From: a virus
Lineage: Duplodnaviria > Caudoviricetes
Direction: 5' to 3' (one strand)
DNA length: 64,000 bases
Virus record (IMG/VR): IMGVR_UViG_3300029305_003510
Span: 1 to 64,000 of that record
Each line of letters starts with the position of its first letter. Within the stretch, counting starts at the first letter, position 1. Of this stretch, positions 1 to 29,074 are shown in pieces. The position numbers were made by a program, and so were the translations under genes. A model generated the notes under the pieces. The model ran no database searches. It was not told where the DNA came from and saw only the letters and a list, made by a program, of their open reading frames with translations.

Positions 1-68
1 TGTGATTGTCCTTTGGGCCAACCACGACTTTGCCACTCGATTCGCCTGTAAGAGTCGTTACACTCCTC

Positions 69-1196
69 TTACGATGCTGCTAAAGCAACATGGGGCCGGA
101 ACCCATGAGAATTGCTGGGAATGTTGTCGCTGAGGCCGCCGCCAGAACCCACGTAGTACACGTAACTAGAGCTGTAGGCGGTAGCAAGCCACCACACTGT
201 GGCGGTGCCGCTATAATTTGCCACTCTATTAGTAGCAGACATCGCATAGTACAAGAATGTGCTGGAAGCCTGAGTATACGTAGGAATCCAAATCTTATTA
301 GATACGCCCTCAATGGTCATACTAATAGCCTGAGACTGATACGTAGAACTCAAACTATTCAAGAATGTTGTACATGCAGCCGCAATCGTAGAACCACTAT
401 ATGTGGTACTGGAACCAAATGCGGTTTTAGAATAGATGCAATAATATGCAAGATACATATAACTTGCATCACGATGTACAACAACCCACCAATGACCGGC
501 CCACTTGACCAAGTCACCAACAGCGTTGGATTTAGTGACAGTATCATCACCAGAAGCACCGACACCGAGCCAAGTCTTCAAATTCGCCAAAGTAACTTTC
601 TTACCAGTGGCAGCACTGACATCACCAATACCGATTACATCAGTATCAGCCAAGCCAGTAGAAGCCAATGCAGTGCTGCCATTGATCAGCGCATACAGCG
701 CCAGAGGTGCTGTGGTCTTGCCGGTACCACCGTTGCCAAGAGGCAACGTGCCAGTAACACCAGGTCTGGGACTAGCCACCAACACGTTAGCAGCAGTGGT
801 GGACGCCAGATTCGTCAACATAGACGGAGAAGCAGTCAAACCAGTACCGCCACGGGCGATGGCCAAAGTCCCAGAAGTGATCGCACTTGCAGCATGATTG
901 TGACTGCTTGCTGCACGACTGGTATCAGTAGGATGCACATGGTCACTACGAGACACAGTCGTCGCAGTGCCAACAGCCGCTGTACCATTCATAGCAGGTG
1001 CAGTCGTAGAGAATGTGACATGGGTGCCATGAGATGCAGCCGCCTTACCGCCAATAGCAGTATTCATAGCTGTAATCGTGGCCTCCAATGTCTTTCCGTC
1101 AGCCATGATAACCACAGCACTCGACGTCTCGAGATAAATGGTATCATAAGTACCTGACGAGTTCTTCCGGTTCAATCGTTCCTTCAGAACGGCCAT
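69..1196 (-). CDS. Tail fibre / receptor-binding protein with C-terminal CLec-like (DUF6273-type) domain; probable DGR target
   Basis: Ala/Thr/Ser-rich shaft with fibre repeats (HNHAASAITSGTLAIARGGTG, GTLPLGNGGTG). C-terminal WWLAT...YVYYV...NSHGFRP is typical of CLec-fold DGR targets. SD AAGGAGG upstream. Confidence 0.8.
   Translation of the reverse strand: MAVLKERLNRKNSSGTYDTIYLETSSAVVIMADGKTLEATITAMNTAIGGKAAASHGTHVTFSTTAPAMNGTAAVGTATTVSRSDHVHPTDTSRAASSHNHAASAITSGTLAIARGGTGLTASPSMLTNLASTTAANVLVASPRPGVTGTLPLGNGGTGKTTAPLALYALINGSTALASTGLADTDVIGIGDVSAATGKKVTLANLKTWLGVGASGDDTVTKSNAVGDLVKWAGHWWVVVHRDASYMYLAYYCIYSKTAFGSSTTYSGSTIAAACTTFLNSLSSTYQSQAISMTIEGVSNKIWIPTYTQASSTFLYYAMSATNRVANYSGTATVWWLATAYSSSYVYYVGSGGGLSDNIPSNSHGFRPHVALAAS
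88..222 (-). repeat. Putative DGR variable region (VR)
   Basis: Located at the 3' end of a CLec-type gene. Codons are dominated by NNC/NNT (TAC AGC TCT AGT TAC..GGC GGC CTC AGC GAC AAC ATT CCC AGC AAT), ending in GC-rich GGGTTCCGGCCCC. No template repeat seen in the window. Confidence 0.6.
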
Positions 1197-1372: not shown

Positions 1373-2950
1373 TTAAGAAATCGTCTCGAACCAAAGATCG
1401 CCAGCAAGCTGATTGGTAGGCTGAGTAGAGCCGGTTGCAACATTCACAACACGAGTGCCGTTACTGTACAAACAACCATCGGTACCAATATATGCAGTGT
1501 CATGAGAATATGTTTGAGGGTTGGCTGCCTGAGAAGCAGCACCGATAAGGAACAGTTTCGAAGAACTATTAGTAGAACCTGCAGTATTCTTGGTATTAGT
1601 CGGTACAACCCAAGTTCCATCGCCACGAAGGAACGAAGCTTGCTTGCCTGCAGCAGGAGCAGGTACGGCACCAGCAGTACCGGCAGCATCTGCAGTAGCT
1701 GCAGTCATAACCGGAATACGTGCAACTGCAAAAGTCCCACTCGTAATCTTGCTTGCAGCAAGAGAAGGAATATCTGTAGCCACTAAAGCTCTAAAAGTAG
1801 CTGCGCCATCAGAGCCGTTTGGTGCGGCCAGGACTGTATTAGCGGTTCGGCTCGTGCTGGCACTATACTTATCGCCGAGCTGTGTCTGGACATTGGAAGT
1901 TACACCATCCATATAATTCAGCTCATCGGCAGTCGCAGTAATACCGAGATCGGACAGAGTAGTAGCTGCACCAGGAATTCCTAAACCGGTAATATCCTCC
2001 TTGGTAATAGCAGTAACGGCAGTTACGTGACCCTTATCATCAACTGTAATCTTATACAACCCAGAAGCACGTGCAGTATGTGTCGGATGCGTATAAATGA
2101 TGACTTCATTACCATCGATGATTACATTACCGTTGGTATCAGATGCAGTAACAACCGTAGCATTACTGGGAGCATGTGCAGACTGACTATGTTCATATGC
2201 AATCTTACCGCGATCACCACGATAGGCCGTAGTTGCAGTTTCACCAAGTGCTATACCTCCACCGGCTCCACCAACAGAGGCATAGTGAGTACCACCCCAA
2301 CGATACATTTGATTTGCATTGATGTCGTTATAAAGCTTACCAGCTTCAGGTGTTACAATAATTCCATTGGTGTCGGTGAATTCGGTGAAATCATCATTGG
2401 TAATAGAGCCTTCAATGACATCATCGACATACGAAGGCAGATACTGTGCCAAAATCTTACCATTCTCATCAAGAGGAGCAATACCACTATTCGCTCCCAA
2501 AAGAATTTGTTTCAAATAAATAGCATCATGGTTATGATCGCTTAATGCCTTCGAATTAAGCTGATTCTGAATATTACTAGTTAAACCAGACAGATATCCC
2601 AACTCTGTCTCGGTAATGGCAGAAATATTCAGACTTTCATCTTCTCCGGTAATAACAACTCTTCCTGCAGTACCGACCTTAATTGTAGCACCGGTATGTT
2701 CATGGCTATCATCACCGACTTCCACGTCGATACTGACACTATCCACACCATTATATGTGGCGCTGCCGGTGACACCACCGGACAGAGAAATCGTGCGATT
2801 TTTCACAAGGGATGCTAGCTTTTGGGATAAAGTAACGCCAACTTCACCTTCGATCAACACCATGTCAGAATCTGTTTCAAAGTGGAAGATCTGAATTGCC
2901 CCGGTAGCATCGATCTTCTTACCATACTGCTGTTTTACAATAGTAGACAT
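1373..2950 (-). CDS. Tail fibre protein
   Basis: Fibre motifs (DDSHEH, YLPSYVDDVIEG, LGETATTAYRGDRGK, YTHPTH, GAVPAPAAG..FLRGDGTW) and C-terminal QP..GDLW. Confidence 0.8.
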   Translation of the reverse strand: MSTIVKQQYGKKIDATGAIQIFHFETDSDMVLIEGEVGVTLSQKLASLVKNRTISLSGGVTGSATYNGVDSVSIDVEVGDDSHEHTGATIKVGTAGRVVITGEDESLNISAITETELGYLSGLTSNIQNQLNSKALSDHNHDAIYLKQILLGANSGIAPLDENGKILAQYLPSYVDDVIEGSITNDDFTEFTDTNGIIVTPEAGKLYNDINANQMYRWGGTHYASVGGAGGGIALGETATTAYRGDRGKIAYEHSQSAHAPSNATVVTASDTNGNVIIDGNEVIIYTHPTHTARASGLYKITVDDKGHVTAVTAITKEDITGLGIPGAATTLSDLGITATADELNYMDGVTSNVQTQLGDKYSASTSRTANTVLAAPNGSDGAATFRALVATDIPSLAASKITSGTFAVARIPVMTAATADAAGTAGAVPAPAAGKQASFLRGDGTWVVPTNTKNTAGSTNSSSKLFLIGAASQAANPQTYSHDTAYIGTDGCLYSNGTRVVNVATGSTQPTNQLAGDLWFETIS

Positions 2951-4305: not shown

Positions 4306-5244
4306 ATGACTAATTACCGCAAATTGATTGTAGATAGCGCAATTTCCTATGTTGGAACAAAGGAGCCCTCTGGCGATGACCAGTTCATTACTGCATATAA
4401 TAAATGGGCTGGTGCTAACTTTAGCGTAGACACTACTCCCTGGTGTGCTATCTTCGTAACTTTCAACGCACGTATGGTGGGTGTGCCCACCAATATCATT
4501 CCTAACTTCGCCAGTTGTAAGGTTGCCATTGACTGGTATAAACAGCGTGGACAGTGGCATGATCGAACCAGCGGATATAAGCCCAAGAGTGGTGATCTCT
4601 GTTTCTTCGACTGGCAGGTCGATAAGAAAGCGGATCATGTTGGTATCGTTACCGAGAATGACGGATCTAAAGTCTATGTTGTTGAAGGCAATACTAAGGG
4701 CACCGGCACTGTTTATGGCGTGCTGAAGAAGAGCTATGTGCTCTCCAGCAAGTATATTCTTGGTTATGCTTCTCCTGATTATACCGGTAAGAGTGTATCC
4801 GGAATCGCCAATCCGACTCAGTTGTCCAGCATGGTTAAATCTTCTTACATCAAGAAATATCAGACCTGGCTGAATCAGAACTATGGGTTCTCCCTGGTTG
4901 TTGATGGTAGCTTTGGCCCTAAAACTCGTAAAGCTTCTATCATGGCTTGGCAGATGCAGATGAATGCAAGTTTTATCACCTGCAAGCTTGAAGTAGACGG
5001 TATATATGGTCCTCTGAGTAAGAAGCAGTGCGATGCACATCCGCTGAAGAAGAACTCGAAGTGTACCAATCTGATCTATATCCTGCAGGGTCTCTTGTAT
5101 GCACATGGATATGATCCAAAGGGCTTTGACGGTATCTTCGGCTCTGGTTGCCAGACTGCTGTTCGCGCTTTCCAGAGAGCTCGTTCTATCAACGAAGCTG
5201 ATGTTGTCAAGGCTATGACTATGGAATCCCTGTTCAACAAGTAA
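4306..5244 (+). CDS. Endolysin-like CHAP amidase with two C-terminal PG_binding_1-type domains
   Basis: PWCAIFV (catalytic Cys), DHVGIV (His), VEGN; VDGSFGPKT, DGIYGP and DGIFGSGCQTAVRAFQ repeats. Confidence 0.85.
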   Translation: MTNYRKLIVDSAISYVGTKEPSGDDQFITAYNKWAGANFSVDTTPWCAIFVTFNARMVGVPTNIIPNFASCKVAIDWYKQRGQWHDRTSGYKPKSGDLCFFDWQVDKKADHVGIVTENDGSKVYVVEGNTKGTGTVYGVLKKSYVLSSKYILGYASPDYTGKSVSGIANPTQLSSMVKSSYIKKYQTWLNQNYGFSLVVDGSFGPKTRKASIMAWQMQMNASFITCKLEVDGIYGPLSKKQCDAHPLKKNSKCTNLIYILQGLLYAHGYDPKGFDGIFGSGCQTAVRAFQRARSINEADVVKAMTMESLFNK

Positions 5245-25370: not shown

Positions 25371-26588
25371 TTAGTCAGTAAACAAGAGGCGATAACGCTT
25401 AGACGTATTCAAATCCGTGCATTGTTTCTTAGCAAGATCAAATCTCATACGAGCTTTCTTTTTACTGGGAAGGAGGTCTTTATATTCTTTCTTAAAACCT
25501 TCAATAATCTTGCCGGATTTAGGATCAATAGCACAGTATGACCACGTATTTTCAGGGTCGGTGACATCACACGTAACGGCGATATTAAACTTACCTTCCA
25601 TAGCAAGGTGTCTCTCATGAGGACTGAAAGAGAACTCACCCTTACGACCCATAATCTCCTCAGCAAATGCACGAGCTAACGCATCATCGCTATCCGCTTT
25701 AGATTTATCGCCTTTGGAAGGTTTTCGAACAGAATCTTCATCATCCTCGTCGTCATCATAACCCATACTTCGAGCAGAATTCTTAAAGTTGCTAGAGCCT
25801 TTATCTTTCTTTTTATCTTTACCCTTCTTACCTTTAGATTCTCCTCGATCTTCATCGATATCGAATACACCACGAAGATACTTAGCACCAAGATTAGAAA
25901 TAGCCTTGGTGTTATCACTACCCTCATTAGCTCTCTTATCTTTATCTTTCTTATATTCAAGATCGGATACTGTCTTAGCAATAGAGCCTAGCTCTTTAAC
26001 GGCAGAAAGCTTGCTATTCTTTGCTGAGATCAGATTACTAATCTGCTGAGAGCGATACATATTTCGAGTCTGTCCACGACTGGAATTAAGTTCATCCTCA
26101 ATCTCAGAAGCAATCTTATCAAAGTCGGTAATAGTGTCATGGAGCATCGAGACAACAGGAGAAAAGCGTTTACCGTAAGTAGTATCAAGCGTTGTGTCTT
26201 TACGCTTATTGCCACCTTTCTTTTTATTGTCACGATATCCCTCTTCATCCTCTTCGTCTTCAGCTTCAGCAACTGCATCAGCATTATTAAAGACCATATT
26301 CAGAAGACTTTCACGGGCTTTCTTATTCTTTTTCTTCTTGCCTTCCTTTTTGGACTCTTTATACTCATCAGTTTTCTGATACTGAGTAACAGCGGCTTTT
26401 TCTGCCCGGAACTGTTTTAACTTTGCTTCCAGATCATCGATACTGGTAGTCAGCTCTGCTTTGCGTTCATCTACACGGGATGCCGTAGGACGAAGAAGGA
26501 CAAAACCGTCTTCATCACGATCCATGTCACTATATCCAACGGCACGACGATACTGATCTCTTCCAAGATCATAAATCGCAACATCCAT
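25371..26588 (-). CDS. Hypothetical Lys/Asp-rich coiled-coil protein
   Basis: 405-aa ORF with SD AAGGAGG and a late-type promoter. Confidence 0.75.
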   Translation of the reverse strand: MDVAIYDLGRDQYRRAVGYSDMDRDEDGFVLLRPTASRVDERKAELTTSIDDLEAKLKQFRAEKAAVTQYQKTDEYKESKKEGKKKKNKKARESLLNMVFNNADAVAEAEDEEDEEGYRDNKKKGGNKRKDTTLDTTYGKRFSPVVSMLHDTITDFDKIASEIEDELNSSRGQTRNMYRSQQISNLISAKNSKLSAVKELGSIAKTVSDLEYKKDKDKRANEGSDNTKAISNLGAKYLRGVFDIDEDRGESKGKKGKDKKKDKGSSNFKNSARSMGYDDDEDDEDSVRKPSKGDKSKADSDDALARAFAEEIMGRKGEFSFSPHERHLAMEGKFNIAVTCDVTDPENTWSYCAIDPKSGKIIEGFKKEYKDLLPSKKKARMRFDLAKKQCTDLNTSKRYRLLFTD

Positions 26589-26922: not shown

Positions 26923-29074
26923 ATGCCTAAAGAAAAAGGAAAACTGAACATCAAAAACCGAGATGCGTATAAATGTTTCATACCATCTCCAATCGAACAC
27001 TATGAAACGCCGACCAAAATTAAATCGGTCCGCTTTGTTCGATCCTCTCCCGATGAAAAATATCGGAAACTGAAAAAGAAAGGGTTGAACATCGACATCA
27101 CCAACCCTGAGATTTATGTCAACGGGAAGAAACCTACAGATGGTATTTTCTCTCCACTCTTTGGTGCCGACACAACACAGGATACACCCGTCTATACCTG
27201 TGATTGCCATAAACTAACCGGTGGTGTTAATCGTGGTCGTATCTGCCCTGATTGTGGATCGGAAGTCCGTACGATTGAAGCTGACCTTCGTATCACCGGA
27301 CATATCGACATTGCTCCATATCATATCATGACTTATCACGGATATATCGCAATGTCCAAAGTATTCAAGAATCTCGGGGATATCATTAAGACCAATAAAC
27401 GCATCACACGATCTGGTAAAATCGCAGAAAGCGATATGCCCACGATTATGGATCTTTACGACGACTATGAAGAGCTCTATGAGCATAAGACTGGTCTCCC
27501 TAAAGAGATCGCATTCATGTCAAAGATCCCTGTTTATTCTGCACGCCTACGCCCGTTGATGCAACAGAATATGGTTATGACGATTCTGGATGTGAATAAA
27601 CGCTATCTTTCCATTACAAACCTGAGCGGTATTCTGAAGTCTACGCAGTTTATGCCAGAATTTCATCGGGAAATTGAAATCCAGCGTACGCTGAATCAGA
27701 TCCAACAGGACTTCAATGATATCACAACTATTGTCAATGAACAGATTAACAGTAAATCTGGCGTGTTCCGTCGAGCATTAGCATCTGGTCGTCTTGACAA
27801 CTCTTCTCGTCTGGTTATCACTCTCGGCACAGATCTCATGGCGCATGAAGTTGATGTCCCATATCAGATGATGATGGTCCAATACGAAGAGGAGATCGCA
27901 AACTACCTTTCCCGTATTCAGGATATTCCCGTTTCCAGGGCTATCGATATTGTGGAAGAGAATCAGACAACACCTACACCTCTCTTTGTGAAAATTATTA
28001 ATCAGCTTTTGAAAGCAAAGAAAGGTATTTGGATACTCGATAACCGAAATCCGACCATCTCGGAATCTGGCGTTCAGTATGTTCGTATTCGAAAGATCCA
28101 TGATGATCCCACGGATATGACTATGCATCTACCTCCGGATGTTCTCGGTCTGCTCGCAGCTGACTTCGATAGATGGATGAGAGTCCAATCTGTCCCCTCC
28201 TACAGGAATGTGGGATGTGGAACCAATCTAATTGCTGGGAAGTGCTAAAGCCTCTAAGCTCTTTAATACACTTTTAGAGTTACGAAAGTAGAAACAAGTT
28301 AGAGGATGGGTATATGGTTAAATCCTAAGTACCTGGAGTACAATGTGCAATCAGCAGCGAAACTTTATAAATTAACAGTAGATAGCATATGGTAATGCGA
28401 TGGATTATAAATCCGTATGGATGACAGTTCGATTCTGTCTCTCAGATAATTTATAAAGGACGTTCAACGACTATTATGTAGGACTCAAGCGAGTTCGAAA
28501 TGGTTGGGGTCCCAATGTCTAGACTCTAAATTTAGATAATGGATCATGATATAGTCTCTACATGTAGGTAACACCTACAGCAGTCTGTAAAATTAAGATT
28601 CAACTAACTGGCGGGATTTAAGATAGCGCGCATATCTGTTTCGTTAAGAGTTGACGGTTTTATTAGACGCTCTCGAAGTAGCGACTCGAGAGGAAGATTT
28701 AGGGAGATCAGCTGACTGGAGTTTCGGTTAAGAACCCGAACTACCACCCACTCTTTATGACCATGTGTCCGACATACGCTTTCATCGATCGTGCTGATGG
28801 TAAGTTTAATCGGGCCATGGATTTCAAGAAAGACTATGCAGCATTAATTGCTGCAGCTTGGGATATTGATGCAGCATATGATCAATTTCTCTCCAATCCG
28901 GAAGCAGAACATTATGAGATACTGAAACAAATGGGTCTGGATGATGTAGAGAATGAATCCGCTCGTGATAGACGTGAAATGGTTTTCCGCACACTCATGT
29001 CTGGAAAGGTATCGGGTAAGTTCCGGGATCGTTTTATAGACCCTTTTGGTTTCCGCCAGGAGAGTGTCATGTAA
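26923..29074 (+). CDS. Phage multisubunit RNA polymerase beta'-N subunit (non-virion type); exons 26923-28170 and 28703-29074, 539 aa spliced
   Basis: DGIFSPLFG, Zn finger CDC..CPDCG, KSGVFRR..GR..SSR.VI and NRNPTI. Splicing restores catalytic AADFD|GDQL in frame with ORF 28757..29074. Confidence 0.9.
28171..28702 (+). ncRNA. Group I self-splicing intron (532 nt, no homing endonuclease ORF)
   Basis: 5' exon ends in U and intron ends in G. Core elements: P AATTGCTGGGAA (28230), Q AATCAGCAGC (28349), R GTTCAACGACTA (28462), S ATGATATAGTCT (28546). P7 is GACTA/TAGTC. Confidence 0.92.

Follow-up and report, generated by a model that had tools for sequence, protein, structure and literature searches.

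The window, by which we mean the whole 64,000-nt stretch analysed here, is the first 64 kb of one 230,855-bp virus record. Close to its left end, on the minus strand, lies an open reading frame for a tail-fibre-like protein of 375 amino acids (window 1196..69), whose stop codon occupies window 69-71, corresponding to genome 230622-230624. The protein is built from an attachment-like N-terminal segment, fibre segments with GGTG repeats, and a C-terminal domain of the C-type-lectin kind (ca residues 220-375). Upstream of it, on the same strand, is a gene for a 525-aa fibre-like or virion structural protein (window 2950..1373), so described from its PHROGs matches to virion structural proteins. 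The feature of interest is a 91-nt segment at the very end of the 375-aa gene (window 182..92, minus strand), comprising codons 339-368 and the first base of codon 369. [quoted passage not shown]

A search of the whole 230,855-bp record with window 60-330 returned two further copies of this stretch, one in the final 243 bases of the contig and one at 229168-229267. The second of these contains an A-rich segment of 91 nt (genome 229267..229177, minus strand) that can be aligned to the VR without gaps, as expected for its template repeat (TR). The two segments differ at 13 of the 91 positions, and all 13 mismatches fall on adenines of the TR. Since 29 of the 91 nucleotides of the TR are adenines, the chance of this outcome is ca 3.5e-7. 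The copy at the contig end holds a second VR allele (genome 230735..230645, minus strand), which has 17 mismatches to the TR over the 91 nt, again all on TR adenines (17/17). The assignment of the C-terminus as a DGR variable region is thereby borne out, including the prediction that BLASTN would reveal a second copy differing at template adenines, while the extent has to be narrowed, the actual VR at 92..182 lying inside the interval first given.

Read in the frame of the target gene, the TR has six AAC codons, four AAT codons and nine other adenine-bearing codons. When the whole genome was searched with the TR by sensitive BLAST, no additional copy of the TR or VR and no orphan VR appeared. 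Two other origins of the VR differences were considered, namely a plain paralogous repeat and a recombination cassette, and both were rejected on the grounds that every difference is located on a template adenine. The original suspicion had come in part from codon usage, that is, from the lack of A-ending codons between TGG TGG and CCC CAT (window 194..90). The count is correct (0/35), and with 10.9% of the codons ending in A elsewhere in the target ORF, it corresponds to P of ca 0.018, which is suggestive at most.

It is important to point out that the contig overlaps with itself. Window 1-302 is equivalent to genome 230554-230855, and the 20 mismatches in this 302-bp overlap are all within the VR, at window 106-176, the flanks of 91 and 120 bp being identical. 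Judging from the sequence, the contig would represent one turn of a closed or permuted genome of ca 230,553 bp, in which the VR locus has been passed twice and two alleles have been recorded. In IMG/VR the record is labelled linear, and CheckV estimates it to be 89% complete. The 20 VR mismatches masked the overlap from end-repeat detection, and the label probably understates a complete genome.

We have also considered the case of a linear genome with direct terminal repeats, where the two VR copies would be physically separate and independently diversified instead of being haplotypes of a population. Such an arrangement would agree with the linear class of the record and with the fact that the overlap is non-identical, unlike a plain k-mer overlap. 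However, the contig end cuts the right-hand copy exactly where a continuation of the sequence would lead back into the window, and identical flanks on both sides of the mismatches are what is expected of a bubble in a circular assembly graph. Moreover, sister assemblies of 230,846 and 230,676 bp hold the target gene, and the variant from the 230,676-bp assembly has exactly the peptide of the second contig-end allele. Terminal repeats are therefore considered very unlikely, and the closed or permuted genome is adopted below. The sizes of the sister assemblies suggest that assembly breaks repeatedly at the VR, which in this way hides a closed genome behind a label of a linear and incomplete one.

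As the contig closes on itself, the genes at its other end lie to the left of position 1. Along the minus strand and across the junction one passes, in turn, the target, an avd-like gene, the TR and a reverse transcriptase (RT) gene. The stop codon of the target is followed after 261 nt by an ORF of 326 aa (genome 230360..229380), from which 112 nt lead to the TR, and a further 274 nt separate the TR from an ORF of 501 aa (genome 228902..227397), all on the minus strand. The first-pass annotation had seen none of these elements in the window and had expected them just left of its first position, which is where they are found.

The 501-aa ORF matches RVT_1 with an E-value of 8e-14 and phrog_1423 with 1.5e-96. 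DGR reverse transcriptases are marked by the motif [I/L/V]GxxxSQ in place of QGxxxSP, together with a YxDD box. Here, the corresponding motifs are IGFQTSQ (IGxxxSQ) and YMDD, and both are unchanged throughout an alignment of 26 relatives. In NCBIfam no DGR-RT model was matched over its cut-off, the best match being a group II intron RT with 100 bits compared to a cut-off of 300. From its motifs and profile matches, the ORF is assigned as a DGR-type reverse transcriptase.

For the 326-aa ORF, residues 23-155 match phrog_3206, annotated as 'Avd protein of DGR', with an E-value of 5.3e-9, while the direct comparison with the Avd models of Pfam and NCBIfam is weak (E 0.04). A full HMMER search yielded 66 relatives, 49 of which were aligned together with the query. 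Among these 50 sequences, 12 match the Pfam family bAvd (best E 1.2e-10) and 5 the related family 23S_rRNA_IVP, and the profile of the homologues matches the four-helix-bundle protein 2gsc (E 4.8e-5). The ORF between the target and the TR is thus assigned as an Avd, and the profile searches that had been suggested for the two proteins gave both of them. The arrangement is also kept in a relative from IMG/VR of 287,660 bp, rated 100% complete and called the 288-kb relative in the following. In this phage the order is fibre, target, avd, TR and RT, and 18 of the 21 mismatches between TR and VR are at adenines.

The VR ends with a GC-rich sequence of 13 nt, GGGTTCCGGCCCC (window 92..104, minus strand), which is identical in the VR and the TR. 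Past this end, at window 91..71, the VR and TR sides are alike but differ from each other. By analogy with BPP-1, GGGTTCCGGCCCC is the putative start of an IMH-like element, with diverged flanks resembling the IMH/IMH* pair. Directly after the GC-rich element, DNA folding predicts a hairpin with a 7-bp stem (ATGTTGC/GCAGCAT) and a 4-nt loop (window 91..74, minus strand). This hairpin adjoins the VR and is missing beside the TR, which makes it a candidate target-recognition structure. A second hairpin, with a 7-bp stem of GTAAGAG/CTCTTAC, is predicted across the stop codon (window 48..72, minus strand), and the 126-nt stretch with the predicted hairpins has a fold z-score of -2.85. No clear equivalent of the predicted VR-side hairpins was evident in the sequence of the 288-kb relative. 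On the template side, the 274-nt spacer between the TR and the RT (genome 228903-229176, minus strand) has a predicted fold that is stabler than shuffled controls (z -3.3), in which the GC-rich 3' end of the TR pairs with a downstream complement. The spacer between TR and RT is also stable in the 288-kb relative, and an Rfam search of the TR-spacer RNA returned no family. The predicted hairpins and the stable spacer fit the model established for BPP-1.

The activity of the element was examined by means of natural variants, and the variation discussed here is that between assemblies and between the two contig-end haplotypes of one assembly, not that at the level of reads. The 90%-identity cluster to which the target belongs comprises 15 different sequences, taken from assemblies of JGI and ENA. 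Residues 1-340 are invariant in these sequences except for two singleton changes, and 12 distinct VR peptides are found among the 15 variants. The codons that vary are 16 of the 19 adenine-bearing ones and none of the 11 adenine-free ones, and changes at the adenines of the TR codon are sufficient to account for every residue observed. In the corresponding RT cluster there are only 2 full-length sequences, on 16 contigs. These results are in accord with the hypermutability claimed by the first-pass annotation, seen here across assemblies. Exact-pattern scans for the conserved VR flank in viral and metagenome contig sets gave nothing; near-identical records may be absent from these sets.

A possible objection is that the element is dead, the variants being old alleles that have been sorted among strains. 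Variation known from assemblies and not from reads would be compatible with such a fossil, and several of the VR variants are indeed closely related, some being only one position apart. It would, however, be difficult to reconcile with so many VR peptides on proteins that are otherwise essentially identical and with an RT that is almost invariant. Also, two haplotypes occur inside one assembly, and the RT, Avd and TR are all intact, with the catalytic motifs of the RT conserved. We consequently regard a fossil element as extremely improbable. The sequences indicate instead that diversification is ongoing in natural populations, with the RT and the rest of the target gene staying constant.

Two features of the variants go beyond simple substitutions. 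In 5 of the 15 (P0001, P0122, P0125, P0133 and P0134; four full-length proteins of 376 aa and one fragment of 266 aa), an extra residue is present inside the run of AAC codons. A simple adenine substitution is insufficient for this, and an additional codon would need either a length variant of the TR or slippage during reverse transcription. The VR peptide of P0128 is a mosaic, in which the 3' half is as in the window allele and the 5' half is different. This suggests that mosaic alleles arise from partial conversion or from recombination between alleles.

On the basis of the above, window 92-182 is very probably the VR of a complete and active DGR with the layout of BPP-1 (target-avd-TR-RT). 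In the mechanism that we propose, the TR would be transcribed with its structured 274-nt spacer, and a complex of RT and Avd would make cDNA from the TR RNA, with misincorporation opposite the template adenines. The cDNA would then take the place of the VR, with the GC-rich IMH-like end and the hairpin beside it as guides, and the TR would remain unchanged. The adenines are distributed over 10 AAC/AAT codons and 9 further ones, so that up to 19 residues could be rewritten on the ligand-binding face of a tip with the C-type-lectin fold, and no stop codons would be created at the AAY codons.

The fold of this tip was assessed with an AlphaFold (AF2) model of residues 191-375 of the target, based on 43 homologues. 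The mean pLDDT of the model is 88, with values above 94 across the domain. Foldseek found nothing in the PDB at E <= 0.001, and its matches above this value are mostly C-type lectins. With VIA-align, the best match is the N-terminal domain of the IgA peptidase of Thomasclavelia ramosa (9qa6; 24% identity, Z 16.3), followed by the C-terminal domain of Legionella Lcl (8q4e; Z 9.8), a Bacteroides fimbrial protein (4eps; Z 8.8) and TvpA, a DGR variable protein of Treponema denticola (2y3c; Z 8.2), and after these come dozens of animal C-type lectins. Through these matches to lectin-fold structures, the C-terminal domain is assigned the C-type-lectin (CLec) fold in the model, with the VR on its C-terminal face, as had been anticipated from the residue pattern. 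At the level of profiles, DUF6273, a Pfam domain of unknown function, matches the target weakly (E 1.2e-4), under the Pfam cut-off.

The role of the target as a tail fibre is deduced from domain sharing and gene neighbourhood. Homologues that have the middle part of the target in common carry Phage_fiber_2, PTR and tail-collar Pfam domains, and the gene adjoins that of the 525-aa fibre-like protein, a counterpart of which likewise lies upstream of the target gene of the 288-kb relative. These observations are in line with the tail fibre and receptor-binding function put forward in the first-pass annotation, which is retained here as an inferred role, a PHROGs search with the 375-aa protein having given no match.

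The diversified protein could alternatively be another exposed lectin-fold protein, such as one decorating the head or the sheath, or one that is not part of the virion, in which case the DGR would tune a trait other than adsorption. The lack of a PHROGs annotation leaves room for this, targets outside the structural modules have been reported for gut-phage DGRs (PMC8008677), and the structure matched best is that of a domain from a bacterial IgA peptidase. Against it stand the middle segment and the conserved arrangement just described, and also a third observation, namely that the genome encodes, nearby, an undiversified paralogue of the target (376 aa, genome 223833-224960, plus strand), which is 51% identical and has the same architecture, as alternative fibres would predict. 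A non-fibre target is accordingly judged unlikely. The tip of the paralogue has no similarity to the TR, and no targeting of it was found, so that the phage seems to have two fibres, one constant and the other diversified. With the diversified tip located on a tail-fibre-like protein, we propose that the phage population would continually sample new receptor specificities. Uncultured phages of this kind may shift their receptor specificity quickly, which bears on host assignment and on attempts at isolation. A few kb from the fibre genes, at window 4306-5244 (plus strand), there is also a gene for a protein with a CHAP and a peptidoglycan-binding domain, which is probably an endolysin or a tail lysin.

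As to the type of phage, the genome encodes an RNA polymerase (RNAP) beta homologue at genome 146719-147600 (PF00562, 62.8 bits, over the cut-off). A beta'-type match is found in a 462-aa open frame at window 27790-28170 (plus strand; PF00623, 17.2 bits, under the cut-off), which probably corresponds to one part of a split RNAP of the phage. A search of the genome for the tyrosine integrase domain PF00589 gave no match. By its size of 231 kb and its gene content, the genome is that of a jumbo phage (>200 kb) with its own RNA polymerase, of the phiKZ/AR9 type, in agreement with the first-pass description. The 288-kb relative has two RNAP-beta-type matches.

The distribution of the RT gives some insight into the history of the element. 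A search with the single RT sequence reached only distant small-phage RTs (26-33% identity), while the alignment used as query reached the 288-kb relative. Homologues with 42-63% identity are on contigs of 125-329 kb, and contigs of 20-67 kb carry shorter RTs with ca 42-44% identity at 67% coverage. A FastTree was made from the 120 best RT matches, and in it all 16 RTs from contigs of at least 125 kb fall on one side of a branch with 100% support, and none of the 18 RTs labelled as from contigs of 19-67 kb are on that side; the tree is a quick one, from a query-biased sample with midpoint rooting and many unlabelled short contigs. Taking the RT clade on large contigs together with the cassette shared with the 288-kb relative, the DGR appears to be old and to have been passed down vertically within this jumbo-phage lineage. 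Targeted hypermutation of a receptor-binding tip would thus reach beyond the small temperate gut phages, into a deep clade of phages of 125-329 kb, at least two of which encode an RNAP beta homologue, and the DGR would be inherited together with the fibre gene.

It is instructive to compare the element with known systems. With BPP-1 (mtd-avd-TR-brt) it has in common the gene order target-avd-TR-RT, the location of the VR at the very 3' end of the gene for a fibre protein with the CLec fold, and mutagenesis restricted to adenines on AAY codons. The GC-rich end of VR and TR, followed by diverged IMH-like sequence, is also as in BPP-1, and the predicted hairpin beside the VR only would be a further resemblance. 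However, BPP-1 is a temperate phage of 42 kb, whereas the present phage has a genome of 231 kb, an RNAP of its own and no integrase match. With 501 aa for the RT and 326 aa for Avd, both proteins are here much longer, having C-terminal tails that contain the peptide D-x-D-G-F-x-x-L, and the target domain belongs to the DUF6273/DUF1566 type and is not Mtd-like.

DGRs with DUF1566/CLec targets occur in gut phages such as Hankyphage, Quimbyvirus, lytic Bacteroides uniformis phages and crAss-like phages. The class of target is the same, and the core of the RT is 38-45% identical to RTs on phage contigs of 8-55 kb in IMG/VR. The setting is probably also the same, gut or rumen, according to names from binned contigs. 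The jumbo-phage RTs differ in being across the 100%-supported branch and in having the extra tail, and there is here a single target, in the structural region. TvpA (2y3c) and the C-terminal domain of Lcl (8q4e) share the CLec-type fold at identities of only 12-15%. TvpA differs in being a bacterial lipoprotein of the FGE-like CLec subtype, and Lcl in that it is no DGR target.

A parallel in terms of phage type is the RT gp206 of MarsHill, one of the AR9-like Staphylococcus jumbo phages, which is likewise an RT of ca 500 aa in an RNAP-carrying jumbo phage. No Avd, TR, VR or IMH was identified alongside this RT by its authors, who deem it retron-like (bioRxiv 10.1101/2020.12.14.422802), whereas all parts of a DGR are present here. 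Full-text literature searches found no published DGR on an RNAP-encoding jumbo phage, and in the jumbo-phage overview of Iyer et al. DGRs appear solely in the reference list. Automated tools have, on the other hand, catalogued DGRs in tens of thousands of gut phage genomes (PMC8241571), and such loci are therefore probably already there, unremarked. DGRs have likewise been described for lytic Bacteroides phages and for crAss-like phages. The view of the first-pass annotation, that DGRs are mainly known from temperate phages and that one on a jumbo phage would be notable, has to be modified accordingly: it holds for the published record of RNAP-encoding jumbo phages as far as it was searched, but lytic gut phages and the vast gut catalogues have DGRs as well. 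The element is a canonical DGR with a known mechanism, and what distinguishes it is the host lineage, the assembly-level evidence of activity, and the tails on the RT and Avd.

Finally, these tails are the one feature from which something new might be learnt about how DGRs work. The RT and Avd are ca 130 and ca 190 residues longer, respectively, than typical small-phage versions, and in their C-terminal tails the D-x-D-G-F-x-x-L peptide is present twice in the RT and once in Avd. The motif is conserved in relatives whose contigs are of jumbo size, among them the 288-kb phage. One can speculate that the DGR of the jumbo clade is wired into the phage replication machinery, with the tail peptides of RT and Avd docking on one replisome-associated hub, an idea that we put forward tentatively and consider rather doubtful as yet. 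If true, the docking would mean that the synthesis of cDNA and the replacement of the VR are physically coupled to the replication of the phage DNA, and would give a handle on how the DGR cDNA enters the target, a step that to our knowledge is still unsolved. In the ORFs of the whole genome the motif occurs 13 times, compared to 1.8 expected from shuffled sequences; apart from the RT and Avd ORFs (genome 227397-228902 and 229380-230360, minus strand), it is located for example at window 25371-26588 (minus strand).
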